Below the pieces are notes generated by a model. It searched no databases, had not been told where the DNA came from, and was given only the letters and a program-made list of their open reading frames with translations. A DNA stretch of 64,000 nt from an uncultured cyanobacterium. Lineage in GTDB: Bacteria; Cyanobacteriota; Cyanobacteriia; Cyanobacteriales; CAWCAG01. Where the stretch lies: the NCBI GenBank assembly GCA_963793425.1, contig CAWCAG010000005.1, positions 1,376,001 to 1,440,000 of the forward strand. Direction: 5' to 3'. The position numbers and the translations under genes were made by a program. This document shows positions 1,882 to 52,828 of the stretch, piece after piece (position 1 is the first letter of the stretch; every line of letters starts with the position of its first letter).

Positions 1882-3693
1882 ATGAATTCAGAAGATTTAG
1901 CAAATTCAAAAATAATATTCATCAGGAAAAAACTCAATAAACTTAAGCAAGTATGGAAGAAAGAAGGAACTTTAGGTGTTTTCAAATTTATTTATCAAAA
2001 GATTACGAAAAAAAATAAGAGTAAGGTTAGCTATCAAAAGTGGTTTGAAAAGAACCAGTTAAAAAATGGTGATATCATCAAAGCTCGCTGGCAAATAAGC
2101 CAGATGAAATTACGCCCCAAATTTTCAGTCATTATGCCAGTGTATAATGTTGAAAAAAAATGGCTAGAGAAAGCAATTGAATCTGTACGTGAACAAATTT
2201 ATCCTGACTGGGAACTTTGCATAGCTGATGATGCTTCAACTGAACCTCATATTCGGCCGCTTCTTGAGAAATACAGTAAGCTTGATTCTCGCATTAAAGT
2301 TCTCTTCAGAAAAGAAAATGGTCACATTTCTACTGCTAGTAACTCTGCTTTAGAACTAGCAACAGGGGACTATATTGCTCTTTTAGATCATGATGATGAA
2401 TTGACTATTAATGCTTTATTGGAAAATGCGAAGTTAATCAATAGTCATCCGAAAGCAGATTTCATCTATAGCGATGAAGACAAGATAGACACAAAAGGGA
2501 ATTTTTCAGAACCATTTTTTAAGCCAGATTGGTCTCCAGAATACTTCTATGCTTGTATGTATACCTGCCATTTAGGTGTCTATCGAACTAAGCTAATTAG
2601 AGAAATTAAGGGTTTTCGTAGCGAGTATGATGGTTCGCAAGATTATGATCTCGTTTTAAGATTCGTTGAAAAAACAAAAAACATTTATCATATTCCTAAA
2701 ATTCTTTACCATTGGCGCATGATACCTACCTCCGCCGCCTCTACACCCGAAGCTAAACCTTGGGCTTATAAAGCCGGTTGGAAAGCTCTAGAATCTATGT
2801 TAGAGCGTAGCTTATATTCAGGGTTTGTCTCTGAGCAGATCAGCCCTGGATCGTACCGAACAAGACGAAAAATTATCGATCAACCTTTGGTGAGTATTAT
2901 TATTCCCAGTGCTGGTAAATGGGTAGATACACATCAAGGTTCCGTGTGCATCCTTCAAAAGTGTATTCAAAGTATTAGGCAATTAAGCACTTATCGTAAT
3001 TTTGAAATTATCTTAGTTGATGGTTATGATATCGCTGAATCAACTCTCAAGGAAATCTCAGATTCTGATTTAACTATAGTTCGTTGTGACGAACCTTTCA
3101 ACTTCTCCATGAGAATAAATACGGGAGTAGCAAAAGCGGCAGGAAAATTCTTGTTACTCTTGAACGATGACATAGAAATTATTACCCCTGATTGGATTGA
3201 ATCCATGTTGGAATTTGCTCAACAGGATGAAATTGGCGCAGTAGGAGCTAAGCTATTTAGTGCTGATAGGGAAATTCAACATATTGGAGTTATTTTATTT
3301 GAAAATATACCCGAACATATTTTTTATCATTGGCCAGGAGATCACTTGGGCTATTTCAATTTCAACTGTGTCAATAAAAATTATTTAGCTGTTACGGCTG
3401 CTTGTTTAATGGTCAGGAAAGAACTATTTGAGCAACTAGGAGGACTAGATGAAGAATTTCCTATTAACTACGGAGATGTAGATTTCTGTATGAAAATATA
3501 TCAAGCAGGATATAGAAATGTGGTTACGCCATTTGCTCAACTAATTCATTATGAATCTGTTAGTAGAGGTAAAGGTGCAGAAGCTGAGGAGAAGAAAGAA
3601 TTTAAGCAAAAGTGGCAAAATTATCTTAATTCTATAGGAGGAGATCCTTATTACCATCCAATTTTTGAGAATAGGGGGGATTTTGATTTTTAA
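1882..3693 (+). CDS. Two-domain GT2 glycosyltransferase
   Basis: Domain 1: SVIMPVYN, LDHDD, YSDED, SQDYDL. Domain 2: SIIIP, LLNDD, GDVDFC. Confidence 0.9.
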   Translation: MNSEDLANSKIIFIRKKLNKLKQVWKKEGTLGVFKFIYQKITKKNKSKVSYQKWFEKNQLKNGDIIKARWQISQMKLRPKFSVIMPVYNVEKKWLEKAIESVREQIYPDWELCIADDASTEPHIRPLLEKYSKLDSRIKVLFRKENGHISTASNSALELATGDYIALLDHDDELTINALLENAKLINSHPKADFIYSDEDKIDTKGNFSEPFFKPDWSPEYFYACMYTCHLGVYRTKLIREIKGFRSEYDGSQDYDLVLRFVEKTKNIYHIPKILYHWRMIPTSAASTPEAKPWAYKAGWKALESMLERSLYSGFVSEQISPGSYRTRRKIIDQPLVSIIIPSAGKWVDTHQGSVCILQKCIQSIRQLSTYRNFEIILVDGYDIAESTLKEISDSDLTIVRCDEPFNFSMRINTGVAKAAGKFLLLLNDDIEIITPDWIESMLEFAQQDEIGAVGAKLFSADREIQHIGVILFENIPEHIFYHWPGDHLGYFNFNCVNKNYLAVTAACLMVRKELFEQLGGLDEEFPINYGDVDFCMKIYQAGYRNVVTPFAQLIHYESVSRGKGAEAEEKKEFKQKWQNYLNSIGGDPYYHPIFENRGDFDF

Positions 3694-3830
3694 TCTCAAT
3701 CAAAATTGAAACTCACTTTAAAGAGGGAGAAGGCAAGTTTCATAAAAAGCTCTTAATAAGCTAGAAAAAACGATTAATTATCCCCTCTTATTAAAAAGAA
3801 TATTGCAATAGAAAAAATTTACAGAGGTAG

Positions 3831-4619
3831 ATGAAAAAGCCAAATATATTAGACTCTTATATTCATAGTTGCCCTAGCTATCAAAACATTTTGGATATAT
3901 TCAGTGGTGAATGGGCCTCGAAAATACCCAGTGAAGCTCATTTGGTTACTGAACCTGGATTTGCTGGCTTGTTTGAAGATCCAAGAATAAGCTGGATCTC
4001 AGAAGTTTTTGGAAGCCTTGAGGGCAAGAAAGTTCTTGAGCTTGGCCCTTTAGAAGGTGGACACTCTTATATGCTCAACAAGATGGGAGTAGCTAGGGTA
4101 GATGCAGTCGAATCTAATACCAGAGCGTTTCTAAAGTGCTTATGTATTAAAGAAATATTTGACTTGCAAAACGTTAAATTCATGCTTGGTGACTTTAACG
4201 CATTTCTTGAAGAGGAAGATAAAAAGTACGACCTGATAGTTGCAAGTGGTGTTCTATACCACATGATAGATCCAATACAACTTCTGAGGTTAATAGCAAA
4301 AACAACTGATAAAGTTATGATTTGGACTCATTACTATGACAGTTCTATTATTTCCAGTAACAAGATTCTTGCCAAAAACTTTTCGAAGCCACATAAGTTC
4401 TCTTTAGATAGGATATCTGTTGAGTTAGCAGAACAATCCTATAATGAAGCTCTTGGTTGGCAGGGTTTTTGCGGTGGTAGTAAGCCAACAAGCAAATGGC
4501 TAACTCGACTGTCTATTCTAAACTTGTTGGAAGGTCTAGGATTTTCCGATCTGAATATAGGGTTTGAAAATAAAAATCACCCTAATGGCCCCTCTTTTGC
4601 TATATGTGCAGCAAAGTAG
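3831..4619 (+). CDS. Class I SAM-dependent methyltransferase
   Basis: VLELGPLEGG motif I; YDLIVASGVLYH. Confidence 0.8.
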   Translation: MKKPNILDSYIHSCPSYQNILDIFSGEWASKIPSEAHLVTEPGFAGLFEDPRISWISEVFGSLEGKKVLELGPLEGGHSYMLNKMGVARVDAVESNTRAFLKCLCIKEIFDLQNVKFMLGDFNAFLEEEDKKYDLIVASGVLYHMIDPIQLLRLIAKTTDKVMIWTHYYDSSIISSNKILAKNFSKPHKFSLDRISVELAEQSYNEALGWQGFCGGSKPTSKWLTRLSILNLLEGLGFSDLNIGFENKNHPNGPSFAICAAK

Positions 4620-4888: not shown

Positions 4889-5692
4889 ATGTCAATGTGG
4901 GAATCTAACCAGACCAAACTACCTGTTGTTATCCTCTGCGGAGGTCGCGGCACTCGATTAAAAGAAGAAACTGAATGGCGACCAAAACCAATGGTTTCTA
5001 TTGGTGAAAGACCAATACTGTGGCATATCATGAAAATCTATGCTAGCCATGGTTTCACAAACTTCATTCTTTGCCTGGGATACAAAGGAGATATCATTCG
5101 AGATTATTTCCTCAATTATGATCTAAAAAACTCGGACATCAAAGTCGATTTAGGGAGTAAGCGAGTTACTAAGCTATCAGACGGACACGAGGCAAATAAC
5201 TGGTCAGTTACTCTAGTGGATACGGGACAAAAATCCATGACTGGCGGACGTTTGAAGATTGCCAGCAAATATATTAATAGCGATACTTTCTGTTTTACTT
5301 ATGGTGATGGGGTAGCCAATATAGATATTGATTCGTTAGTTCAGTTTCACTCGGAAAAGGGAAAATGGGCAACAGTTACTGCCGTAAGACCATCATCTCG
5401 CTATGGAGAATTGGTTATCAATAATGGTATCGCCGAAGCTTTTGCTGAGAAACCACAAACTCACGAAGGATGGATTAATGGGGGGTTCTTCGTACTTAAT
5501 CGCAAAGTTATAGACTTCATCAAAGATGAGGAAACTATTTGGGAACAAGAACCTTTACAAAAGCTCGCTGAAACTGGAGAACTAGCAGTTTACCAGCATC
5601 AAAATTTCTGGCAGAGTATGGATACTTACCGGGAAATGGAATTACTAAACGACCTTTGGAATAGGGGGAATGCTCCTTGGAAGGTATGGTGA
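4889..5692 (+). CDS. rfbF: Glucose-1-phosphate cytidylyltransferase
   Basis: [45 protein letters not shown]. Confidence 0.95.
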
Positions 5693-8044: not shown

Positions 8045-8071
8045 GGAAACAAATATCTATTTATATCAGCC

Positions 8072-8980
8072 TTGAGTGAAGCAACACAAACTATCATAGT
8101 TACAGGAGCAACAGGTTTTTTAGGTAGTCATTTAGTCAAGAAACTACTTGAAGATAACCATAGAGTTGTTATTCTCAAGCGAAGCTTTTCTAATCCTAGG
8201 AGAATCAATGATGTTTTACCTTATCTCATTTGCTATGACATAGATAAATGTAAATTAGCTAAACCCTTTCGGGATTTTACTAGAGTAGATGCCATTATTC
8301 ATACAGCTACTTGTTATGGCCGTAAAAATGAAAGTACTGCTAGTATTTTTTCTACAAATACTTTTTGGCCTTTACAACTGCTTGAATATGCTAGTCAACA
8401 AGAAAACATAACTTTCTTTAATACTGATACAGTTTTGCCTAAACACTTAAATAACTACTCCCTTTCTAAAGCACATTTTCGTGAATGGGGAGAACATTTT
8501 TCTAAACAAGAAAAGATTAAGTTTATTAATATCAAGCTTGAACATATGTTTGGAGCTAATGATGATGACTCAAAATTTACGACCTATGTAATTAAAAACT
8601 GTCTTGCTAATACACCAGAACTTAAATTAACGTATGGAGAGCAGAAGCGAGATTTTATTCATATTGATGACGTTGTATCTGCATACAATATACTACTTTG
8701 CAATAAGGATAATCTAAACAAGTTTTACCAAGAGTTTGAATTAGGAAGTGGTAAGGCAATTTTTATTCGCCAATTTGTGGAGATGATACATAAATTAACC
8801 TTCTCACAGACAATTCTTAAATTTGGAGCTATAGATTATCGCCCAGATGAAATCATGTATTCTGAAGCGAAAGTAAAATCACTTCTAGATTTAGGTTGGA
8901 TGCCAGAACAAACCATAGAAGAAGGTTTACATAAAACTATTGCTTGGTATGTGAAAAATAAGCAAATGGAGGATAGTTAG
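8072..8980 (+). CDS. CDP-3,6-dideoxy-4-hexulose reductase (paratose/abequose synthase-like SDR)
   Basis: [42 protein letters not shown]; lies between rfbH and rfbE. Confidence 0.8.
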
Positions 8981-17493: not shown

Positions 17494-18114
17494 ATGACTC
17501 AAACAATAAACAAAACATTAACCTTTGCAGAATTTGTCAGATGGAAACTAGAAAACAAGCATTACGAATTACACAATGGAGTAATTGTTGAAGTGGCCCA
17601 ACCTCTTGGTAAGCATGAAAATGTGGTTGGGTTTTTAGCCAGAAAAATAACTGTAGAGTTTGACCGCTTAAATTTACCTTACTTCATTGCCTCAAAAGTA
17701 TTAGTTAAACCTGATACTCAAGACTCGGCTTATTTTCCTGATGTATTGATACTAAACAAGGGTAATTTTAAAAATGAACCTTTGTACGAAAAAGAATCGA
17801 CAGTTTCTCAAGGTGAATCAATACCATTAGTGGTAGAAGTTGTGAGTACTAACTGGAGTGATGATTATGCTTTGAAATGGGAAGAGTACGAAAATATAGG
17901 TATCCCAGAATATTTGATTATTGATTACCTGGGCTTGGGGGGGAAAAAGTTTATCGGCAATCCTAAGCAACCTACTATTACAGTTTGTCAATTAGAAAAT
18001 GGCGAATATAAAAGCATTTTGTTTAGAGGCGACGAAGTTATTCAACTAAAATCATTTCCAGAATTAAAACTGACCGCCAAAGAAGTTTTTCGCTCTGCTC
18101 AAGTTGAAAGCTAA
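17494..18114 (+). CDS. Uma2-family PD-(D/E)XK endonuclease-fold protein
   Basis: YELHNG, PDV, LVVEVVSTNW.DDY..K, GIPEY. Confidence 0.9.
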   Translation: MTQTINKTLTFAEFVRWKLENKHYELHNGVIVEVAQPLGKHENVVGFLARKITVEFDRLNLPYFIASKVLVKPDTQDSAYFPDVLILNKGNFKNEPLYEKESTVSQGESIPLVVEVVSTNWSDDYALKWEEYENIGIPEYLIIDYLGLGGKKFIGNPKQPTITVCQLENGEYKSILFRGDEVIQLKSFPELKLTAKEVFRSAQVES

Positions 18115-34200: not shown

Positions 34201-36624
34201 GAAGTATTAGAAAAGTTTGCGACGAGGGAAATAAAATGCAAAGTAGACTATTTATTTAATTCTTTTATTTTTCATTGGAAAGAATCTGCTAATTCTGCCA
34301 TAGAACCATTACGAGAAACTATTCAAGTAGGTTTAGAAACTGGAGATATTGAATTTGCTTGTTATGGTGCTGTGGAATATTGTTCCAATCTTTTGTTATT
34401 AGGACAGCCTTTAGATTATATTAGCCAGCAGCATCAACAATATATTGATTTGATTAGGAAAAATAAGCAAGGATATTCTTTAGCTTACGTAAAAATCTGG
34501 AGCCAGTTGGTTGAAAGTTTAAGAGGTAATTCAGAAAATCAACAACAATTAGTTGGAGAAGAATTTGATGAAGTAACGATGTTGCCAAGGTTACTTCAAA
34601 CTAATAACTTAAACTTAGTTTTCCAGGTTTATTTAGCTAAAACTATTTTAAGTTACTTATTTAAAGACTATTCAGCAGCCATGACCCATGCTTCTTTAGG
34701 AGCCAATTATGAGCCTTCTGTAGTGGGTTTATTTAATGTTGCTCAGCATAACTTCTACTATTCTTTAGCTTTACTGGCTAACTGTACTAAAAATAATGAA
34801 AGTAGGAAAGAGCAGTTTTTAAAGAAAGTTGTTGCTAATCAACAGAAAATGAGCATTTGGTCTAACCATGCTCCGATGAATTTTTTACATAAATATGAAT
34901 TAGTAGAAGCAGAAAAAGCACGAGTTTCAAATCAATATTGGCAAGCCGCAGAACTTTATGAAAATGCTATCAAAAACGCTAGGGAATCTGGCTATACTCA
35001 AGATGAAGCCTTAGCTTATGAGTTGGCCGCAGAATTTTATTTAAGTCGTGGCATGGCAGAAGTTGGGCAGCTTTATATGACAAAAGCTCATTACAGCTAT
35101 CAACATTGGCAAGCTACCGCTAAAGTAAAAGATTTGGAAAAGAGGCATCCTCAGTTGTTTTCTTCAACTCCTATAGTTCCTAATAAGCTTAAAAATAACT
35201 CTACAATCGCGACAACAGATCCTTCTAACCTTTTAGATATAACCAGTGTTCTTAAAGCTTCTCAAGCATTAGGTAGCGAGATTGTTTTAGACAAATTGCT
35301 GACGCGAATGATGAAAATTGTGATAGAAAATGCGGGGGCAGATAGGGGCTTTCTTTTATTAAATAAATCTGATGGCTGGGTAATTGAAGCCATGGGAACT
35401 ATTGGTGAAGAAAAAATTACCATAGAACAATTACCATTAGAAGATGCTCAACAGCAATCTCGCTTACCTAAAACTATTATTAATTATGTAAGTCATACTC
35501 ACAAAAATCTTGTCTTAGGAGATGCTGTTCAGGTGGGTGCTTTCACCCAAGATCCCTATATTATAAGTCATAAACCTAAATCAATTCTCTGTACACCTTT
35601 ACTCAACCAAGGAACATTAGTAGGTATTGTTTATTTAGAGAATAGTTTGATTGCAGAAGCTTTTACCCCAGATCGCTCAGAGCTTCTCCATTTACTTTCT
35701 TCTCAAGCTGCTATTTCTCTAGAGAATGCCCGCTCCTACAGCCGTCAAGTGGAACTGACAGATTCCTATAGTCGTTTTGTTCCCGCTGAGTATTTAGAGT
35801 TTTTGCAAAAGAAAAGTATTACCCAAGTAAAGTTAGGGGATCATGTTAGTAAAGAGATGGCAGTGATGTTTTCTGATATTCGCTCCTTCACTGCCATTTC
35901 TGAAAATATGACTCCCCAAGAAAACTTTGATTTTGTCAACAATTATCTTAGGGAAGTAAGTCCCAAAATCCGTGGCAATGATGGTTTCATTGTTAAATAT
36001 TTAGGGGATGGGATGATGGCTGTTTTTCCGAATGGGGCTGACAATGCTTTAGCGGCCGGAATTGCTAAACTGCAACAGGTGGAAATATATAATCGTCAGC
36101 GTCAAGAAAATAACCAACCTCCGATTAAAGTAGGAGTTGGCATACACGTTGGTCATATGATGGTAGGAATGGTGGGAGAAACTGCCCGTATGCAAGGAGA
36201 TGCTTTTTCTGATAATGTCAATCTCACAGCCCGTTTAGAAAGTTTGACTAAGTTCTATGGTGTTTCTTTAGTGATTAGCGAGACTACGAAAGAAAGGTTG
36301 AGCAATCCTCAGCAATATAAAATACGTTTCCTTGATAAAGTTATTCTTAAAGGTAAGAAAAATCCTATCGCCATTTTTGAAGTATTAGATGGCAACAACC
36401 CAGAGGATATTGCAGCTAAGTTAGCAACTCAAGGAGATTTTGAAAAAGGTTTGGAGTGCTATCGTTTAGGGGCAGTAGCAGAAGCAGAAGGCTACTTTAA
36501 GCAAGTTTTAACCAGCAACCCCAATGACAGTGTTTCTCAGCTTTATTTGGAGCGAGTAGAGGAACTTAAAAAAGAAGGTGTACCTAAAAATTGGGATGGG
36601 GTTTGGAGTTTGAAGCGGAAATAG
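31213..36624 (+). CDS. Ser/Thr kinase - AAA/STAND-like ATPase - helical repeats - GAF - class III adenylate cyclase - TPR
   Basis: Kinase HKDINPSN, DFG; ATPase GYSGVGKS, LFLDDLQW; GAF SILCTPL..YLEN; cyclase FSDIRSFT, KYLGDG, NLTARLE. Confidence 0.92.
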   Translation: MLTIGGYLIKEQLFESAHSKIYRGYREIDQQSVVVKMLKDAYPSPERIAWFQREYELLQSLNLIGVAEAYELVTYQSTWAMILEDFGGESLEKLELAGALSIPEFLPLAIKITGILGQIHGCSVIHKDINPSNIVLNPQSGEVKIIDFGIATLLSRENPTFRNPNVLEGTVAYISPEQTGRMNRSMDYRSDFYSLGVTFYKLLTGRVPFVTDEAIELVHAHIAKQPPPLQQDSETGQEEIPQVIVDIVMKLMAKNAEERYQSAYGLKADLDKCLQQLKKKGEIEVFPLAQRDISDKFQIPQKLYGREAEIDALLAAFERTSKGIPPNHLSTGGVEMILVAGYSGVGKSVLVNEIHKPITAKRGIFIAGKYEQYQGNIPYFAISQAFNEFCNQLLSESPETLKIWREKILTAVGNNGQVLIEVIPELALVIGQQPPLAQVSPQEAQNRFHLVFQNFVKAISQAENPLVLFLDDLQWVDTASLKLLKLLMSDKSYRYLLIVGAYRVNEVDATHPLKIALDSIEAESGVISSIHLKNLTKTDVNTLLTEALNCEPDYSQSLADLVYKKTQGNAFFTKEFLKSLYESGLLTFEFPSISLLVTGQSKGGWQWNVSQIQAENITDNVVELMADKICHLDTETQTVLQLAACIGNSFNLSLLTQLYQKQYQVKTATSQSILSDLWQALQEGLVVPLNEQYKLINTELSGASKEEKINFNQFKRAIFKFQHDRVQQAAYALISPQKRQQKIHVQIADLLLENTQPEELEESIFDIVNQYNEGLSLIEVEKAMELARLNLKAGKKAKVATAYEPAVKYLNIGLDLLSEQSWQTEYDLTFALHIEAIEAEYLNTNFEQAKFLTDIVLSNANTVLDKVKVYENQILFYITQNEQQTAIHIGLRVLEMLEVSLYDSPPPNLDINKLASLPEMADPDKLAAMRILMTIAVPAYIANPTMLPQILFTMIDLCVNYGNSPSAPVAYAFYGSLLCTMFSDIETGYQFGHLALEVLEKFATREIKCKVDYLFNSFIFHWKESANSAIEPLRETIQVGLETGDIEFACYGAVEYCSNLLLLGQPLDYISQQHQQYIDLIRKNKQGYSLAYVKIWSQLVESLRGNSENQQQLVGEEFDEVTMLPRLLQTNNLNLVFQVYLAKTILSYLFKDYSAAMTHASLGANYEPSVVGLFNVAQHNFYYSLALLANCTKNNESRKEQFLKKVVANQQKMSIWSNHAPMNFLHKYELVEAEKARVSNQYWQAAELYENAIKNARESGYTQDEALAYELAAEFYLSRGMAEVGQLYMTKAHYSYQHWQATAKVKDLEKRHPQLFSSTPIVPNKLKNNSTIATTDPSNLLDITSVLKASQALGSEIVLDKLLTRMMKIVIENAGADRGFLLLNKSDGWVIEAMGTIGEEKITIEQLPLEDAQQQSRLPKTIINYVSHTHKNLVLGDAVQVGAFTQDPYIISHKPKSILCTPLLNQGTLVGIVYLENSLIAEAFTPDRSELLHLLSSQAAISLENARSYSRQVELTDSYSRFVPAEYLEFLQKKSITQVKLGDHVSKEMAVMFSDIRSFTAISENMTPQENFDFVNNYLREVSPKIRGNDGFIVKYLGDGMMAVFPNGADNALAAGIAKLQQVEIYNRQRQENNQPPIKVGVGIHVGHMMVGMVGETARMQGDAFSDNVNLTARLESLTKFYGVSLVISETTKERLSNPQQYKIRFLDKVILKGKKNPIAIFEVLDGNNPEDIAAKLATQGDFEKGLECYRLGAVAEAEGYFKQVLTSNPNDSVSQLYLERVEELKKEGVPKNWDGVWSLKRK

Positions 36625-36631
36625 TTGTTCA

Positions 36632-36767
36632 CATAAATAGCACCGGAAACACCATCACCTGGAAGTAATGACTCATTTGCAGCGTCAACAATTACGTCCA
36701 CTTTTTGATGTGTGATATCTCCCTGTTGTATCTCTATTTGCTCTTTAATTACTTTTGTCTCTACCAT
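36632..36767 (-). pseudogene. Macro domain N-terminal fragment
   Basis: IEIQQGDITHQKVDVIVDAANESLLPGDGVSGAI, then truncated at the cyclase gene end. Confidence 0.8.
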
Positions 36768-36969
36768 CAGGATATTCCTCCCTAAATCTCTGGAGAATAG
36801 ACTTATCAGTTGCTTCGTAGACAATAGAATTTTTTTGTCCAAGGACAGGCTTAATATGCTTGACTTCACCTGAAACTATGGGAAGGGGGATTGGCTCAGA
36901 TGCAAATGCAGCGCAGGAGCCATCAAATTGAAAGTGCTTGCAGTATTTGCATCCTTTATATTCTGCCAT
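36745..36969 (-). CDS. Small Cys/His-rich protein
   Basis: CKYCKHF..C.AF..PIP..I.SG...H.KP; overlaps the macro-fragment start. Confidence 0.6.
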   Translation of the reverse strand: MAEYKGCKYCKHFQFDGSCAAFASEPIPLPIVSGEVKHIKPVLGQKNSIVYEATDKSILQRFREEYPDGRDKSN

Positions 36970-37006
36970 TAAATTGTCTTTCTTCGTGTAGTTACAGATT
37001 GTTCAA

Positions 37007-37090
37007 TGCGATCGCCTATTTTATTTCGATTAATTCTGGTGGGCAAAGATAGATGAGTTTCTGAAGCTAATTCAACGACTGAATCTTGCC
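37007..37090 (+). repeat. Direct repeat A, copy 1 (HIP1 plus REP-like palindrome)
   Basis: 82/84 identical to 40314-40397 by manual alignment. Confidence 0.92.
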
Positions 37091-37216
37091 AACCTATTAG
37101 TAATTGATTTGCTATTAGACATATTATGATGGGCAAATAAATAATAAATTTGATTGTCCATCCTAACGAAGGTATTTTGCCCACCCTACCTAAAAGCTTG
37201 AGATATACCATCTGAA

Positions 37217-37253
37217 TGCGATCGCATTCATTAAAGCTTGCCAGAGATAAAGT
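37217..37253 (+). repeat. Direct repeat B, copy 1 (starts at HIP1)
   Basis: 32/37 identical to 40113-40149 by manual alignment. Confidence 0.85.
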
Positions 37254-37304
37254 CAGATTAGTTCGTTGGCTTGAGTAAATATAGTCACATGGAAGAACTT
37301 AAAG

Positions 37305-37559
37305 ATGAAGAATAGTGCGCCTCTGTTAGTTGAAGAAACAAACCTCTCGCGTATGTGGGCTACTGTATTTCTGCATATTATTGATAATTCTGGAAAAGAG
37401 ATTTCGCCACTTATAGTAACTTTAACGGGCTTGACATTTGGGCGTATGAACTGTTTCGTTGGTGTAGCAAAGCTAGATACCATCACTAAATCAGATGATA
37501 GTTTAACTACTCTCAAAAAGGTAGCTCGAAATGCGCTGCCCTCAACTACTAACGAATAA
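37305..37559 (+). pseudogene. Probable thymidylate-synthase-like gene with an in-frame deletion of its core
   Basis: N-terminus NLSRMW...EISPLIVTLTG fused to a C-terminus-like LTFGRMNCFVGVAKL; lies upstream of aGPT-Pplase1/MazG genes. Confidence 0.5.
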
Positions 37560-37578
37560 ACAGTAGAGGGAATACAAC

Positions 37579-38706
37579 ATGAAAACTAAACCTCAGAAAC
37601 ACACAACTAAAAATGCTCAGCAACACAAACAACTAAGTCTTGACTTTGGCCAATATGATTCTGAACAAAGCTCAACACCAAAGATTATTTCATATCTTCC
37701 TGGTGCTAAGCCTACAATTGTATTCAACACTTACTGGCGATTTGCTGCTGAACGGCAAAAAGTATTTTTCAAAAAGTTAGAAAATGCCCCAATACCTTGG
37801 ACTGACGACCCAATTGTTTCAACCTACAAGTTTACCAATGCTTACCGCGCTTCAGATCGTGTAAGCCAGTATTTGATCCGTAATGTCATTTACCAGAATG
37901 ATCTGCCATCATCATCTAACGAGGTATTCTTTAGGATTATCCTTTTCAAAATATTCAATAAGATCGAGACTTGGCAGCTTTTAGAAAAAAAGCTTGGTTC
38001 CCTTGTTTACGCTGAATATTCCTTTGAACGCTATGATCAAGTTCTCACAGAGGCCATTCAGTCAGGCCAAGCTATCTATTCTGCTGCATACATAATGCCA
38101 TCAGGAGGAACAAGCTTTGGACATATAGCGAAACATCGTAACTACCTCAAGCTAATCGAGAAAATGATGGCTGAGGAGCTACCAAAAAAGCTTGCTGATG
38201 CCCAGAATATGCAGCAAGGATTCGATTTGCTGCGAGGATATCCAACTATTGGCGACTTTTTGGCTTATCAGTTTATTACTGATGTTAACTATAGTGAAAT
38301 TACGAACTTTAGCGAAATGGATTTTGTGATTCCTGGCCCTGGGGCGCTAGATGGTATTCGTAAATGCTTTAGTGATTTGGGCGGACTGAGCGAACCAGAA
38401 ATTATAGAGCGCATGGGAGAGAATCAAGAGTCTGAGTTTGAGCGACTAGGACTGAATTTTCAGTCTCTCTGGGGAAGAAGGCTACAATTGATTGATTGCC
38501 AAAATCTATTTTGCGAGGTCGATAAATATGCTCGCATGAAACATCCCGGTATTGCTGGAATATCAGGTCGCTCTCGTATCAAACAAAAATACTCAGGTAA
38601 AGGACAATTTCTAGATTTCTGGTATCCACCTAAATGGGGAATTAATCAGGCTATTGAAAAATACAAAACAGTTGCTAAAGTTCATACTCCGTTGAAGTCT
38701 AAATAG
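37579..38706 (+). CDS. aGPT-Pplase1 / amino acid:DNA transferase-like DNA base hypermodification protein (HhH-glycosylase-like fold)
   Basis: YWRFAAERQ, PWTDDPI..YKFTNAYRASDRVSQ, IGDFLAYQ..D, GPGALDG, QNLFCEVDKY. Confidence 0.85.
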   Translation: MKTKPQKHTTKNAQQHKQLSLDFGQYDSEQSSTPKIISYLPGAKPTIVFNTYWRFAAERQKVFFKKLENAPIPWTDDPIVSTYKFTNAYRASDRVSQYLIRNVIYQNDLPSSSNEVFFRIILFKIFNKIETWQLLEKKLGSLVYAEYSFERYDQVLTEAIQSGQAIYSAAYIMPSGGTSFGHIAKHRNYLKLIEKMMAEELPKKLADAQNMQQGFDLLRGYPTIGDFLAYQFITDVNYSEITNFSEMDFVIPGPGALDGIRKCFSDLGGLSEPEIIERMGENQESEFERLGLNFQSLWGRRLQLIDCQNLFCEVDKYARMKHPGIAGISGRSRIKQKYSGKGQFLDFWYPPKWGINQAIEKYKTVAKVHTPLKSK

Positions 38707-38715
38707 AATCTCAAG

Positions 38716-39594
38716 GTGTCAAGCATGGATTTTCGTGAATATCAGGAACAAGCCCAAAAGACGGATCAAGTTCCCGGTAAAGAAGGAAAAGGAATAACTG
38801 TACCTCTGTTGGGCTTAGTTGGAGAAGCAGGGGAATTGCTCAGTGAATACAAAAAGTACTTACGGGACGGAGAAGCCCATAGGCTTTTTCCAGAACGTGC
38901 TGCCGAAGAGTTGGGGGATATGCTTTGGTATATTGCCAATTTATCTAGCAAGTTTGATCTTAGTCTGGAAAAAATTGCTGAAGACAATATTGAGAAAATA
39001 TTTGATCGTTGGGGATGGAAAAATTCACTACAAACACAGATACACATATTTGACAGTAATTTTCCTGGAAATGAGCGTTTACCACGTCAGTTTGATGTTG
39101 ATCTCACAGAGGTAAACGGAAACAACTCCGTAAAAATGAGAGCATTTGTCAACGGAAAACAAATTGGTGACGACCTCACTGATAATTCTTACTCAAACGA
39201 TGGTTATCGCTTTCATGATATTTTCCATCTTTCCTATGCCGCAGTATTAGGGTGGTCACCAGTCATGCGTCGCAATCTTAAATGTAAGCGAAAAAGTGAC
39301 CCTAGTATTGATGAAGTAGAAGATGGCGGTCGTGCGATCGCAATTGAAGAGGGTATATCAGCCCTTGTATTCAGCTATGCCAAAGACCATCAGTTTTTAG
39401 AAGGAGTTGATACTCTTGACTACCAGTTGCTCAAAACTATTAAAACTATGACTTATTACTTAGAAGTCTCTCAATGTTCCCTTGGTGATTGGGAAAAAGC
39501 TATCCTGAGTGGATACGAAGTCTGGCGAGAAATAGTAGAAAATGGAGGTGGGGAAGTGACTGTAAATCTTGATCAACGTACCTTAAGACGATAA
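38716..39594 (+). CDS. MazG-like NTP pyrophosphohydrolase fused to a MazG-C domain
   Basis: GLVGEAGE...EELGDMLWY; C-domain GDDLTDN..DGYRFHD.FH...GWSPV.R...KRKS...DEVEDG.RA..IEEG. Confidence 0.88.
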   Translation: MSSMDFREYQEQAQKTDQVPGKEGKGITVPLLGLVGEAGELLSEYKKYLRDGEAHRLFPERAAEELGDMLWYIANLSSKFDLSLEKIAEDNIEKIFDRWGWKNSLQTQIHIFDSNFPGNERLPRQFDVDLTEVNGNNSVKMRAFVNGKQIGDDLTDNSYSNDGYRFHDIFHLSYAAVLGWSPVMRRNLKCKRKSDPSIDEVEDGGRAIAIEEGISALVFSYAKDHQFLEGVDTLDYQLLKTIKTMTYYLEVSQCSLGDWEKAILSGYEVWREIVENGGGEVTVNLDQRTLRR

Positions 39595-39612
39595 AAGTTT
39601 AAAGTTATTAAC

Positions 39613-40089
39613 TTAAGCTCGATAAAGCATAGGCTTTGTACTGCTTTTAAGATACAGTGGATGAAATGGACAGCCTCCTTGAGTGATTCCCAAACAGTAT
39701 AAGGGTTTAAAGCCAGTTATCCTCTCAAGAACATCCGTACAACGGTTCCTTAAAATGCCCCGATTTCCCCAAGCTACAATGATTTTATCTGCTGATTTAA
39801 CAGACTTTTCGAGGTAGCAATCATTTTCAGGTCCTACTGGATCTTTGACATTTTGCAGAGTTACTGGTTTTGAGGCCCGATAACCAAATAGGTTAACCAC
39901 TTCAAGGGAACCATAACCCCAAGACTGAGCGAAACCGATGCAGCGACGCAGGGTAGGATCATCCTTCGTTGCATCTGCGCGACTGGGGTTAAGCATAATA
40001 AAGGTGAGTTTAGGAGCATTTGTGTCCCATTCCCGCAAGAGCCAGTAGCGGTAGTATTCTGTTGAGTCTATTACTACATCTTTTATCAT
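39613..40089 (-). CDS. DUF1643 family protein
   Basis: YRYWL.REW, FIMLNPS.AD...DDPT.RRC, VVNLF, AWG, HPLY. Confidence 0.88.
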   Translation of the reverse strand: MIKDVVIDSTEYYRYWLLREWDTNAPKLTFIMLNPSRADATKDDPTLRRCIGFAQSWGYGSLEVVNLFGYRASKPVTLQNVKDPVGPENDCYLEKSVKSADKIIVAWGNRGILRNRCTDVLERITGFKPLYCLGITQGGCPFHPLYLKSSTKPMLYRA

Positions 40090-40112
40090 AGTTGCTTGTA
40101 AGATGGTGAAGT

Positions 40113-40149
40113 TGCGATCGCATTTATCAAAGCTTGCTAGAAAAAAAGT
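40113..40149 (+). repeat. Direct repeat B, copy 2 (starts at HIP1)
   Basis: Matches 37217-37253. Confidence 0.85.
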
Positions 40150-40313
40150 ATGAGTGCTTCATCCCTTCTTCAAACCACAACTAAGCTACCCCATAGCCTG
40201 TATAAGGGCGTTTATAACTTGATAGACTGCTTTAGCTTTTTTATATTTTTGGAAAGTAAAAAATTTAATAGCTCAGTATTAGTATACATATTAGTTGCCA
40301 CCTCTATCTTTAG

Positions 40314-40405
40314 TGCGATCGCCTATTTTATTTCGATTAATTCTGGTGGGCAAAGACAGATGAGTTTCTGAAGCTAATTCAACTACTGAATCTTGCCCAC
40401 CCTAC
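40314..40405 (+). repeat. Direct repeat A, copy 2 (HIP1 plus GGTGGGCAA...TTGCCCACCCTAC palindrome)
   Basis: Matches 37007-37090. Confidence 0.92.
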
Positions 40406-40731
40406 GCAGACAAAAGTTATACGAAAAATAGACGTGAAAGTCTACAGCTTTCCTAGAAAATGAACTAAATCAGCTTATTTTGTAGGGAAATTATGCAGTT
40501 ACCAATGCAACTATCTTGGAAAAGGGTTTTGAGTTTGTTTTCTGTGATCGCTTTAATATCTTTATGTGTACCTGTTCGTAGTTATGGCTTTTCTTCAAGT
40601 GATGTTGATATTCGTTTGAGTAGTTTAGCGATTATGAGTGCTACTCTCAAATACGTCAGGCTTTAAAGGCTTGGATTATCAATGAAAGCTGATTTCGAGG
40701 TTATACCTTCCCCAATGATCACAATTTCTCC

Positions 40732-42174
40732 TCAAACTCCCCTCAACTTTGCACTCAACTCATGTTTAATCCGATTCAGAATAGAAGTCTCATCCAAAGA
40801 CTCTAAAATGCGCGTCACCACAGCTTTGGGGCCATCAGCCCCCCAAGAAGCACCGTTAGCTAAATATTCTTTGGTTACTTGACAAATACCGTAGGTGGAA
40901 ACTCCTGCAACTCCTGCTTGGGTAATCGCCACAGAAATATAGGGGGCTAGGGATACTCCTCCTGTCGCAGGAGCAGAAAGACCTAAAATACCTTTCAGGG
41001 AACTTAAGCCTAAATTGGCGAACAGTTCGCTAGCACTAATTCCTCCCATGCTGATGGCAATTTTTTGTAACAACCCTATTGCCCCCTGCTGAGTCATGGA
41101 GATGCCGTAAAGCTTAGAAAGGGTTAAAATCGCTGCTACATCAATTACCGCCCCGGTAAACAAGTCTACGGCGGTAACGGGATTGCAGGCGATCGCAACG
41201 GCTTTTGCCATCACTGCTTTGAGGATAATTTGGTTAGCGGCTTCTTCCCGGATTTCCATTTTACGCTGTACCAATTGTTCATTAACTTCGTCAGCGTAAA
41301 GCATGGTATTGAGGGCAACTAAGGATTTACCTTCTTGGTGCAAAATCTCTAATATTTTTAACTTCAATTCTGCCATTTGCCCCTCTCCCTGAACCCTTTG
41401 CAGTTTCACACTGCCATCAGCAAGACGTTCTGCTTTAGCAACTAAAGGAGAAGCCGCAACCATGACAATCTCATCAGGAGAAAGTAATTCTCGTACTCTT
41501 TGGTCGCGAATGGTACGATAAATTAACTCCCGGTCAGCATCAGGATATTGATCAATTTTGTTAAACACCAAAACCATTGGTTTACCAACTTCCCTTAATT
41601 GGGAAAGGGCGCTATATTCTACTTTGGTAATATCTCCAGCAACAACAAACAAAATTAAATCTGCTTGTTTAGCAATTTGATGGGCTAAAGCTTCGCGAGT
41701 TTCCCCATCAACCTCATCAATGCCTGGAGTATCAATAAGTTGAATTTGTGAGTCTCCTACCCCCGGTAAAGCCACCCGTAAAACATTCTTTTCACTATCA
41801 CCAATACTTTCTGTATCCACTTGCCAGTTAGCGCTGTTGATAGTTTGAGTTACACCATGTAAAGGACCGGTTTCAAAGATATTCTCCCCCAAGAGTGCAT
41901 TAAGTACAGAAGATTTGCCCCTCCCCACCATACCAAAAGCGGCAATTTGCACGACAGCTTGATCTAACTTATCGAGCATAGCTTTTAAATGGTCAATTTC
42001 TGCTTCTAAGCCTGCTTGTTCGGTGGAAGTTAAATCGAGTTTGTTAACTAAGTTATGGAGAGATTTTTGAGCTTGTTTATAGTTTAATTCTTCTTGAATT
42101 TCTGTAAAACCAAGAATAGCGTTATCTAATTCTTCTGGTTTCCAGTTAGAGAAGTCAGGGAGTGGCTCAGACAT
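40732..42174 (-). CDS. Era/HSR1-like GTPase with a DUF697-type C-terminus
   Basis: GMVGRGKSS, DTPG, NKID; start MSEPL at 42174. Confidence 0.85.
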   Translation of the reverse strand: MSEPLPDFSNWKPEELDNAILGFTEIQEELNYKQAQKSLHNLVNKLDLTSTEQAGLEAEIDHLKAMLDKLDQAVVQIAAFGMVGRGKSSVLNALLGENIFETGPLHGVTQTINSANWQVDTESIGDSEKNVLRVALPGVGDSQIQLIDTPGIDEVDGETREALAHQIAKQADLILFVVAGDITKVEYSALSQLREVGKPMVLVFNKIDQYPDADRELIYRTIRDQRVRELLSPDEIVMVAASPLVAKAERLADGSVKLQRVQGEGQMAELKLKILEILHQEGKSLVALNTMLYADEVNEQLVQRKMEIREEAANQIILKAVMAKAVAIACNPVTAVDLFTGAVIDVAAILTLSKLYGISMTQQGAIGLLQKIAISMGGISASELFANLGLSSLKGILGLSAPATGGVSLAPYISVAITQAGVAGVSTYGICQVTKEYLANGASWGADGPKAVVTRILESLDETSILNRIKHELSAKLRGV

Positions 42175-51474: not shown

Positions 51475-52016
51475 TTAATGGCTTGATTTCCTCTTCAGTC
51501 GTTTTAATTCTTGATGACAGTAAAGATGTTTGCTGTGGCAATCAATTACCTCCTTATAGTTTTAGCAGCATTGATACCATTTTTAATAATGATTGGGTCT
51601 AAAACCCGATGACAAAACCAGTCTGTTGTTGACCAATCAAAGAAATAACTTTGTTTGAAGAGTAAATCAAACTCAGCTAATAAAAATTTATAGTCGATTT
51701 TATTTAACAGAAACTTTTGAAGATAAATTGTCCCGGCAAATTTATCTTCTGCAAAGGAGCTAGAGATTAAGTCAGAACAAAGTGTTAGTTGTTCTTTAGG
51801 ATCGTAGTTGTAGAGTTTATTTTCTGAATGCCACTGCTTCACTAAAGAAGTTACCTGTGGTGTTTTTATACCTCGGTATTCAATAGCACCCTTAAGGTAA
51901 TTATCGAACCATTGTTTGGTTTTTAAATCAGAGTTCTCCTTAAGTTGTTGAATTAATAATTCAACTAACTCTTCTCGTTTTTGTTGGGATATTTTTAATG
52001 TTAACATGGCTTTCAA
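51475..52016 (-). pseudogene. DNA alkylation repair (AlkD-like) protein, truncated or internally deleted
   Basis: YRGIKTP, EDK, DWSTTDWFC; stops at 156 aa; a possible C-terminal tail EVID.HSKHL...* follows in another frame. Confidence 0.6.
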
Positions 52017-52072
52017 TAACGAAAAAAGAAGCTAAGATCATAAATCTCCTAAGCACCGATTTAGTATCACAA

Positions 52073-52828
52073 ATGAATAAAATAACATTTCACGAACTAG
52101 CTAAAAAAGTTTTAATAAAGATAGATAGACCCCTAACACCAAATGAAATTTGGGAATTAGCTGTTGAAGAAGGACTTGACAAACAGTTAAATAGTTCTGG
52201 AAAAACGCCTTGGGCAACGTTAGGAGCTAAACTTTATGTGGTTTCAAGAGATAATCCAGACTCTATCTTTAAAACTATTGGAGAAAGACCGAAACGATTT
52301 TATTTAAAAAACAAAAAATATGATCTAGATTTTCAAGAATATGAAAAAGGAAAAACAGAGGAAGAAACGACAATTGCTATAAAATCATATTTTGAGAAAG
52401 ATTTACACCCATTTCTAGCTTACTTTAGTTTTTATTCCCTAAACTGCTATTGCCAAACAATCAATCATACAAAATCTGCTCAGAAAAGTTTTGGACAATG
52501 GGTTCACCCTGATATGATTGGATGTGTTTTTCCTATCAATGAATGGGATAATGAAGTTCTTGAGTTAAGCTCAGCAATTGGTAATAATTCTGTAAAATTC
52601 ATTTCATTTGAAGTCAAAAAAGAATTAAACTTATCTACATTAAGAGAGAAGTTTTTTCAAACTGTCTCCAATTCATCTTGGGCAAATGAAAGCTATTTAG
52701 CTGCTACAGAAATATCTCAAAATCCTGATTTCAAAACAGAATTAGGTAGATTATCAAGTTCTTTCGGAATTGGAGTAATCAAAACATCACAAGTCATAGA
52801 ATTGCTATATATTTTTCTTTTAAACTAA
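52073..52828 (+). pseudogene. HARE-HTH plus restriction-endonuclease-fold (COG2958-like) protein, apparently 3'-truncated
   Basis: GKTPWATLGA, EKDLHP, W.HPD, SFEVK, FFQ.VSNSSWAN; ends abruptly after FGIGVI and overlaps the msrA stop. Confidence 0.65.

Follow-up and report, generated by a model that had tools for sequence, protein, structure and literature searches.

Does a compact cassette of four open reading frames (ORFs) in an uncultured cyanobacterium encode a working anti-phage system? The cassette occupies positions 37305–40089 of a 64,000-nucleotide (nt) stretch of contig CAWCAG010000005.1 (assembly GCA_963793425.1, contig positions 1,376,001 to 1,440,000), the whole of which is referred to here as the window. 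A preliminary description of the locus had viewed it as a candidate anti-phage or DNA-modification system, made up of a thymidylate-synthase-like remnant, an intact protein of the aGPT-Pplase1 type (Pfam family PF18723), a MazG protein with a MazG_C domain and a convergent DUF1643 gene. In our analysis the cassette is probably what recent decay has left of a conserved seven-gene operon; the system is most likely dead here, and its two intact genes are leftovers that have yet to decay. The operon family from which it descends is probably antiviral, acting by making or altering unusual DNA building blocks, and the window copy is unlikely to work.

The source genome is a metagenome-assembled sequence of 5.28 Mb in 9 contigs, 98.6% complete. 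A search for sequencing runs containing it found four DNA runs from one study, three of which may be the genome's own source, and none of RNA. The four tightly spaced ORFs were confirmed, and the end of a further gene was recognised at the left edge of the cassette:

37257..37333, + strand: the last ~77 nt of a gene for a CapP-like regulator (Peptidase_M78/ImmA), recognised by blastn against L010, one of the closest loci with an intact operon
37305..37559, + strand: remnant of a gene for a thymidylate-synthase-fold (TS-fold) protein, here called X; 84 amino acids (aa), recognised by homology to a 275-aa X
37579..38706, + strand: intact gene for a PF18723 protein of 375 aa with no kinase fusion, recognised by Pfam
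38716..39594, + strand: intact gene for a MazG + MazG_C protein of 292 aa, recognised by Pfam and AlphaFold
39613..40089, − strand: gene for a DUF1643 protein of 158 aa, convergent with the MazG gene, recognised by Pfam

The complete system was defined by comparison with 80 related loci from cyanobacteria, Acidobacteriota, Planctomycetota and Pseudomonadota, in which genes were counted by tblastn and some of which are cut by contig ends. The same gene order recurs in the closest relatives (L010, L012 and L014) and in loci of other phyla: a carrier-like protein of ~98 aa, an XRE-type helix-turn-helix (HTH) protein, a Peptidase_M78 (M78) protein, X, the PF18723 protein, MazG–MazG_C and, on either strand, a PF01648 transferase of ~130 aa. 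Pfam assigns HTH_3, Peptidase_M78 and ACPS (PF01648, 4'-phosphopantetheinyl transferase) to these genes in the relatives, and the HTH and M78 proteins match the PADLOC models capH (E 5.3e-17) and capP (E 1.6e-12), respectively. PF18723 is encoded in all 80 loci, X in 75, MazG–MazG_C in 72, M78 in 69, HTH in 65, the carrier in 60 and the transferase in 52; all seven occur together in 44. X, ~275 aa in length, lies directly upstream of PF18723 in 75 loci, and PF18723 and MazG–MazG_C are adjacent in 72.

The window copy of X illustrates what has happened to this operon. The 84-aa ORF at 37305–37559 has no match in a Pfam scan. Its first ~50 residues correspond to residues 2–51 of the 275-aa X from Limnofasciculus and its last ~49 to residues 227–275, with the frame preserved, and a search of the whole genome with a profile built from 30 X proteins recovered only positions 3–49 and 225–269 of 271. 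The deletion is in-frame and has removed ~175 codons (528 nt); the two homology blocks overlap by 12 nt at the junction, 37424–37435. An AlphaFold model of an intact X homologue (pLDDT 88.5) gave 396 Foldseek matches at E ≤ 0.001, nearly all of those listed being thymidylate synthases; the best is the CMP hydroxymethylase MilA (E 2.7e-9), and a phage dCMP hydroxylase is among the top matches. It was this fold search that decided the assignment, the X profile having given only a weak match to MilA (E 0.21) among PDB sequences; Pfam gave no recurring match at E ≤ 1 across 30 X members. Cys178, in an FPC motif, is at least 90% conserved, aligns on the MilA cysteine and falls within the segment deleted here. 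The intact homologue therefore has a TS fold with its catalytic cysteine, whereas the window copy has lost both core and cysteine. We conclude that the 84-aa ORF is a true TS-like remnant, as had been proposed for the frame upstream of PF18723, and that its catalytic core is destroyed.

The losses extend to both ends of the operon. A blastn comparison pairs window positions 37257–37435 with positions 5139–5317 of L010, whose M78 gene has its end at 5215. To the left of 37257 there is no homology to the intact operon, and the rest of the M78 gene and everything upstream of it are gone. To the right, the stretch from 39586 to 39628 lacks ~555 nt that in L010 contain the transferase gene. A tblastn search of the whole genome with the Limnofasciculus operon proteins found no carrier, HTH, M78 or transferase at E ≤ 1e-4 and recovered only the two X pieces, PF18723, MazG–MazG_C and DUF1643; the genome holds no second X and no PF00303 gene. 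Set beside the seven-gene operon, then, it has PF18723, MazG–MazG_C and fragments of X and M78. The window copy is an example of system death, in which the operon has lost its left half, the X catalytic core and the transferase gene while two genes still look healthy, so that domain content alone would lead one to overcall the locus as a system.

A pair of direct repeats brackets the cassette:

37002..37094, strand not assigned: 93-nt direct repeat, left copy
40309..40401, strand not assigned: 93-nt direct repeat, right copy

The copies are 3.3 kb apart and 95% identical. Their core is a dispersed hairpin element of ~65 nt, GGTGGGCAA...TTGCCCACC, present in 8 places in the genome, and it could be through these repeats that the cassette is excised or lost. 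An Rfam search of 36400–40900 gave no match at E ≤ 1. Short-read contigs end at a 43-nt exact repeat stretch on both sides of the cassette, where the depth is doubled, and the assembly graph also fits a 3.3-kb circle together with an empty site. These features raise the question of whether the deletions are assembly artefacts, such as a chimeric join at the repeats. We consider this highly improbable. The X junction and the MazG/DUF1643 junction each lie within single contigs in all four runs, with no differences and no alternative joints; the depth of the cassette, 11.5 in run X1, compares with 11.9 and 10.0 in its flanks; and the missing genes are on no other contig of the genome.

With decay of a once complete operon as the preferred reading, its age can be judged from the ratio of non-synonymous to synonymous substitution (dN/dS), calculated by the Nei–Gojobori method for the window copy against its relatives and for intact copies against each other. 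For PF18723 the values are 0.11–0.16 with the window copy and 0.08–0.15 among intact copies; for MazG–MazG_C they are 0.11–0.14 and 0.10–0.20, and for the 84 retained X codons 0.12–0.19, compared with 0.15–0.29 for the same codons in intact copies. An X protein without its catalytic core cannot be so constrained. Its low dN/dS must therefore reflect its history before the deletion, which makes the deletion recent. Since the low values predate the decay, the intactness of PF18723 and MazG–MazG_C is no evidence of present function.

Several observations nevertheless weigh against the reading of the cassette as a dead rump. The two genes that remain are of full length and have lost none of the family-invariant residues, and their dN/dS values (0.11–0.16) are like those of intact systems. 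A Coleofasciculus locus, L011, has independently come to nearly the same layout, consisting of the last ~36 X codons, PF18723, MazG–MazG_C and DUF1643; it too is without the transferase, its breakpoint differs from that of the window, and the pair could be useful alone. In addition, since the contigs break at the flanking repeat, the cassette owes its placement to the original assembly, and the four runs, coming from one study and including three that may be the genome's source, rule out a binning artefact but provide no independent confirmation. As a separate observation on L011, a UPF0175/DUF3368 gene pair of toxin–antitoxin-like character and a TPR protein (L011:3673-4436) replace the lost left half of its operon.

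Taken furthest, the state of the surviving pair could mean that PF18723 and MazG–MazG_C, perhaps with DUF1643, form a working minimal module, for example one that hydrolyses phage hydroxymethyl-deoxynucleoside triphosphates (dNTPs) and acts on phage-made DNA containing hydroxymethyl-pyrimidines. The intact and conserved ORFs, the signal of purifying selection, the adjacency of the two genes in most loci and the arrival of L011 at the same reduced layout by way of a different breakpoint are all in its favour, but we regard it as unlikely. The dead X remnant has the same low dN/dS, so the signal of selection predates the decay. Beyond the window and L011, none of the 80 loci has the pair only; the two loci scored for PF18723 and MazG alone ('hel, mazg') have either TIR/Nmad2 or a different upstream enzyme. 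Such a module would have no regulator, and its promoter signal is not above chance: a scan of 36600–40800 gave 13 promoter-like sites against 11.2 ± 3.3 in shuffled sequences, and 1 terminator-like site against 2.6 ± 1.7. Finally, the whole cassette is absent from the same-genus genome.

The two surviving genes of the decayed operon encode readily recognisable proteins. The 375-aa protein matches PF18723 over profile positions 2–280 of 281 (E 6.8e-113, 377.1 bits; cut-off 25). This family, now named HMUDK_hel, was formerly called aGPT-Pplase1, for alpha-glutamyl/putrescinyl thymine pyrophosphorylase clade 1. Its CExxKY motif takes the form CEVDKY at residues 312–317 in the window; C312, E313, D315, K316 and Y317 are invariant in 24 of 24 aligned homologues and are all kept, and the strict pattern NLFCE.DK[YF] is found in 75 of the 80 loci. 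Among the matches listed, the closest cyanobacterial homologues, from Limnofasciculus, Coleofasciculus and Laspinema, are 82–83% identical to the window protein; identity across phyla is 60–82%. The family was confirmed at no fewer than 575 places among one-genome-per-species collections, and a profile search of PDB sequences found no relative of it. A genome of the same order (G004) has three PF18723 copies, L091 and L092 lying ~1 kb apart on G004:C89:31582-34168 and L093 on G004:C48; one of the three is an open frame of 630 aa, probably kinase-fused.

A thymidylate-kinase-like P-loop domain is fused to PF18723 in 13 of the 80 loci, is encoded by a separate gene in 3 and is absent from 64, and PF02223 is present on 27 of 120 PF18723 homologues among the matches listed. 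The absence of a kinase is therefore normal for the family. A tblastn search of 36001–41000 with five thymidylate-kinase-like N-domains returned nothing better than E 0.06, and a kinase remnant upstream of PF18723 was rejected on this result. Both the intact aGPT-Pplase1-like protein with its CExxKY motif and the lack of an encoded kinase had been noted in the preliminary description, correctly in each case.

The 292-aa protein matches MazG_C (PF18722) with an E value of 1e-82 and 276.8 bits (cut-off 29.7), and MazG (PF03819) marginally, at 22.9 bits (cut-off 22). An all-α MazG nucleoside triphosphate (NTP) pyrophosphohydrolase domain spans residues ~1–100 and MazG_C residues 109–291. In the AlphaFold model (pLDDT 89), the N-domain matches 1vmg with Z 8.5 and an rmsd of 2.2 over 80 residues, and the MazG protein of cyanophage S-2L (7ody) with Z 7.1. 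Residues E37, E44, E64, E65 and D68 are invariant in 38 of 38 sequences, and we take these acidic residues of the N-domain to be its metal-binding motif. The two Pfam matches above cut-off and the fold match bear out the earlier naming of a MazG + MazG_C protein. For the MazG_C fold, Foldseek against the PDB, a wide VIA-align search and a BFVD search with the full model gave only the N-terminal MazG domain or unrelated helical rows, and a profile search found no relative among PDB sequences. MazG-C is labelled a 'predicted nucleotide kinase' in the text of one paper (PMC13092281).

The 158-aa protein matches DUF1643 (PF07799; E 6.2e-49, 165.9 bits, cut-off 22.5), and its gene ends 18 nt from the MazG–MazG_C stop codon. 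DUF1643 occurs in 7 of the 80 loci, all of them cyanobacterial; the closest intact relatives have it on the same strand as the AcpS-type transferase gene and upstream of that gene. The convergent gene is thus present as first described, but it is a lineage-specific neighbour and not a general component of the system. A possible resemblance to uracil-DNA glycosylase (UDG) was examined by hhalign of 115 DUF1643 sequences against 27 UDG ORFs, which gave a probability of 0.7% at low alignment diversity. There is no relative of DUF1643 among PDB sequences, and the Atlas search gave DUF1643 clusters only, without a structure.

The cassette is accessory in this lineage. Of 41 genomes of the order, 3, this one counted, were found to have PF18723; the same-genus and same-family genomes are not among them. 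Two short repeat-like matches aside, the same-genus genome has nothing that corresponds to the interval 36627–40728; the flanking Ser/Thr-kinase/cyclase gene (ending at 36624) and DUF697 GTPase gene (from 40732) are present there on different contigs, with 88% DNA identity. In one of the four runs, a contig from a related strain (8 differences in 180 nt) departs from the window exactly after 36626, at the kinase gene stop codon. Position 36626 is accordingly a strain-variable junction, at which the same-genus genome also loses homology. The genes on either side (~17–31 kb and 43–57 kb) are mostly housekeeping genes, including those for Mg-chelatase, RodA/FtsW, Mrp, a LeuA-like protein, MsrA and UvrB, and the PADLOC matches of the two flanking genes are to generic kinase, cyclase and GTPase domains only. 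With mostly housekeeping genes among the scanned neighbours, there is no defence island at this locus.

The left part of the interval holds a cysteine-rich ORF of 74 aa at 36745–36969 on the − strand, with no family match. After it, on the same strand within 36633–36969, come the first ~40 residues of a macro-domain gene (O-acetyl-ADP-ribose deacetylase-like), which breaks off where the adjacent kinase gene has its stop codon and adds a second fragment of accessory-gene debris to the interval. Elsewhere in the window, among the housekeeping genes, are a putative restriction endonuclease of the Uma2 family and a HARE-HTH protein, at 17494–18114 and 51998–52828. The palindrome GCGATCGC, which we take to be HIP1, is present in the host DNA; together with the Mg-chelatase gene and the closest PF18723 homologues, it marks the host as a cyanobacterium.

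The family tells a different story from the window copy. From the 80 loci we collected, to the left and right of the system, whichever ORF of 120 aa or more lay closest, giving 144 ORFs. Sixteen were set aside, 6 as near-duplicates (L018, L019, L032 and the right flank of L042) and 10 as system parts of TIR/Nmad2-type or kinase-bearing loci (L065, L073, the left flank of L075, L082, L085 and the right flank of L068), which left 128. Of these, 33 match PADLOC models at E ≤ 1e-20, compared with 1 of 46 control ORFs lying beside UDG genes in related cyanobacteria (Fisher p 1.7e-4), a p-value that overstates the case because the controls are cyanobacterial and mutually related whereas the loci span several phyla. 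The matches include GajA (three), GajB, HamB, DrmC, DrmD, AbiEi (five), LmuB, QatA, HerA, dGTPase and NERD-UvrD, together with restriction–modification components and several candidate families; 2 of the 33 are generic kinase or cyclase domains and, like the choice of controls, count against a defensive interpretation. PADLOC v2.0.0 has no model for PF18723, MazG_C, X, the carrier, the transferase or DUF1643. At the family level the system nevertheless looks defensive, being a widespread, conserved and patchily distributed operon that often lies beside known defence genes. The search for an intact version and for defence-island enrichment thus succeeded for the family, and no island was found in the window. 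The proposal of an anti-phage system likewise holds as a candidacy of the family, given its defence neighbours and its sister system DS-4 (see below), but not for the window copy, in which the TS-fold enzyme is destroyed and from whose genome the carrier, regulators and transferase are missing. The family is of more value than the window copy: it adjoins known defence genes and is experimentally untouched apart from one sister architecture.

The family might instead be a pathway by which a mobile element modifies its own DNA or nucleotides, for epigenetic marking or protection from restriction, the window copy being its remnant. Inducible control of the CapH/CapP type, which is typical of CBASS, the anti-phage systems that signal by means of cyclic oligonucleotides, argues against this, as do the enrichment of defence genes among the neighbours and the sister architectures with a ThsB-type TIR, of which DS-4 protects against phage. 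Relatives on viral contigs are rare, amounting to 14 loci, none with MazG_C. On the other side, the patchy distribution suggests horizontal transfer, and the closest characterised enzyme relatives belong to phage pathways that hypermodify the phage's own DNA against restriction (PMC8989533, PMC5889632). On balance we think self-modification improbable and continue to regard the family as a candidate immune system.

Two components set the intact operon apart. The alignment of 37 transferase sequences retains GxD, FAAKEAxxKA and SxSH, presumably the AcpS motifs. In the 98-aa protein, Ser44 lies within an FDS motif and is invariant in 40 sequences. A profile of this protein gave four matches among PDB sequences, all of them to acyl carrier proteins (ACPs); these were weak (E 0.43–0.73), with Ser44 aligned on the serine of the DSL motif. 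Six of 40 members match PF00550 (best E 1.7e-4), 9 of 30 Atlas neighbours fall in a cluster with PF00550 on 23% of its members, and an hhalign comparison with 22 cyanobacterial AcpP proteins gave P 0.003, compared with 0.41 and 0.62 for two unrelated control alignments. We conclude that the 98-aa protein is probably an ACP-like carrier. Carrier and transferase occur together in 46 loci, the carrier alone in 14 (5 at contig ends), the transferase alone in 6 and neither in 14, and the two look like a dedicated pair within a nucleotide-modification defence candidate. L010 offers an example of such a pair, with the carrier at 3641–3937 on the + strand and the AcpS-type transferase at 8049–8453 on the − strand. 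Within the literature searched, no paper was found that connects anti-phage defence with a carrier protein and a phosphopantetheinyl transferase, the one hit being unrelated; computational predictions of such neighbourhoods are reportedly given by Iyer et al. (2013) and Burroughs et al. (2015), which may already describe the operon with its carrier and transferase. This dedicated pair is the most interesting by-product of the analysis. The intact family is a good experimental target, and an ACP-like carrier with an AcpS-type transferase provides a concrete and unusual biochemical hypothesis.

How might such an operon act? Infection or DNA damage would lead the CapP-like protease to remove the CapH-like repressor. 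MazG would then hydrolyse a pyrimidine dNTP, bringing about depletion, supply of the deoxynucleoside monophosphate (dNMP) to X, or both, and X would make a C5-modified, probably hydroxymethyl, pyrimidine nucleotide. PF18723 could process the modified base on DNA or on nucleotides, with the help of a kinase in some versions and probably of the phosphopantetheinylated carrier, and replicating phage DNA would be poisoned or marked as a result. Every biochemical step of this scheme is inferred from parallels with the hydroxymethyl-pyrimidine pathways of phages and with CBASS under CapH/CapP control, and this too must be counted against our interpretation. Given that a TS-fold enzyme is encoded by the intact relatives themselves, the modified pyrimidine is most likely of the system's own making. 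The idea in the preliminary description that the module attacks phage DNA already carrying modified pyrimidines found no support here. More tentatively, the intact relatives may constitute a distinct, carrier-protein-dependent immune system that hypermodifies pyrimidines. In this possible scheme, under a switch of the CapH/CapP type, the TS-fold enzyme and MazG would make a C5-activated pyrimidine, PF18723 would join this base, whether in phage DNA or within the nucleotide pool, to the 98-aa carrier's phosphopantetheine thiol or to a group held on the carrier, and the AcpS-type transferase would charge the carrier.

The nearest system with demonstrated activity is DS-4 of Escherichia coli ('NTTI'), in which TS, a dNMP kinase, PF18723, TIR and Nmad2 are combined and which was validated as anti-phage in 2026 in the DefensePredictor study; the 5-hydroxymethyluracil kinase domain and thymidylate synthase are named there as newly validated defence domains (PMC13092281). 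DS-4 and the present family have in common a TS-family gene followed by a PF18723 gene in one operon of nucleotide-modification type. They differ in that DS-4 has a separate kinase of dNMP/adenylate type, TIR and Nmad2, while the published gene list for DS-4 includes no MazG–MazG_C, CapH/CapP pair, carrier or transferase (PMC13092281). In the window cassette, Pfam searches of the four ORFs and of four neighbouring small ORFs found no kinase, TIR or Nmad2. A second PF18723 architecture among the 80 loci (L065, L075, L082 and L085, from Pseudomonas and others) shares the TIR and Nmad2 layout of DS-4. A dCTP-deaminase-like protein stands in place of X and the regulators, followed by a ThsB-type TIR and Nmad2; a thymidylate kinase and a TS of canonical type are sometimes present, and MazG_C may or may not be.

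The same study describes systems with aGPT-Pplase, MazG and MazG-C, in its Fig. 6F and citing Burroughs et al. 2015, as predicted, sometimes found in defence islands and with 'none experimentally validated' (PMC13092281). As judged from the text and legend of that paper, these have the same three domains and are probably of the same type as the intact relatives; the window copy is a remnant. It had been stated earlier that bacterial neighbourhoods of this kind are predicted computationally, which is so, and that none was known to be functionally characterised, which still applies to the MazG/MazG-C/aGPT-Pplase type in the text of that paper but no longer to its sister DS-4 (PMC13092281). Our literature searches for experimental work on this type of system found only the DefensePredictor paper (PMC13092281).

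The logic of the operon is also that of phage hypermodification clusters, in which a TS-fold hydroxymethylase, an NTP pyrophosphatase and a Pplase-type protein with a putative helix-hairpin-helix fold are likewise combined. In these pathways, phage clade 2 Pplases serve as amino-acid:DNA transferases on kinase-phosphorylated 5-hydroxymethyldeoxyuridine (5-hmdU) by means of an essential Cys-Glu pair, and SP10 gp186 is a kinase fused to a clade 1 Pplase (PMC8989533, PMC5889632); a phage dTTPase/dUTPase and a dUMP hydroxymethylase supply the thymidine hypermodification pathway (PMC13458397). The fusion in SP10 gp186 is paralleled in the 13 bacterial loci with a kinase-fused PF18723 protein. In contrast to the phage clusters, the bacterial operons are cellular and include CapH/CapP-type regulators, a carrier and an AcpS-type transferase; their kinase, where there is one, is thymidylate-kinase-like (PF02223), and their Pplase belongs to clade 1, with a putative activity, whereas the transferases described in these phage papers are of clade 2. 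No pyridoxal-phosphate, radical S-adenosylmethionine or flavin-dependent (FAD) tailoring enzymes were found among the ORFs scanned in the relatives' loci. The window cassette ORFs contain no kinase or clade 2 Pplase by Pfam, supplemented by tblastn for thymidylate kinase, the phage 5-hmdU kinase family not having been searched separately.

With CBASS the intact operon shares only the CapH/CapP-type regulatory pair; the effector genes are unrelated, and both regulators are absent from the window genome. Placed among these systems, the window copy, which is without five of the seven functions of the operon, is a degraded member of a kind that has been predicted in print and validated in part through its sister architecture.

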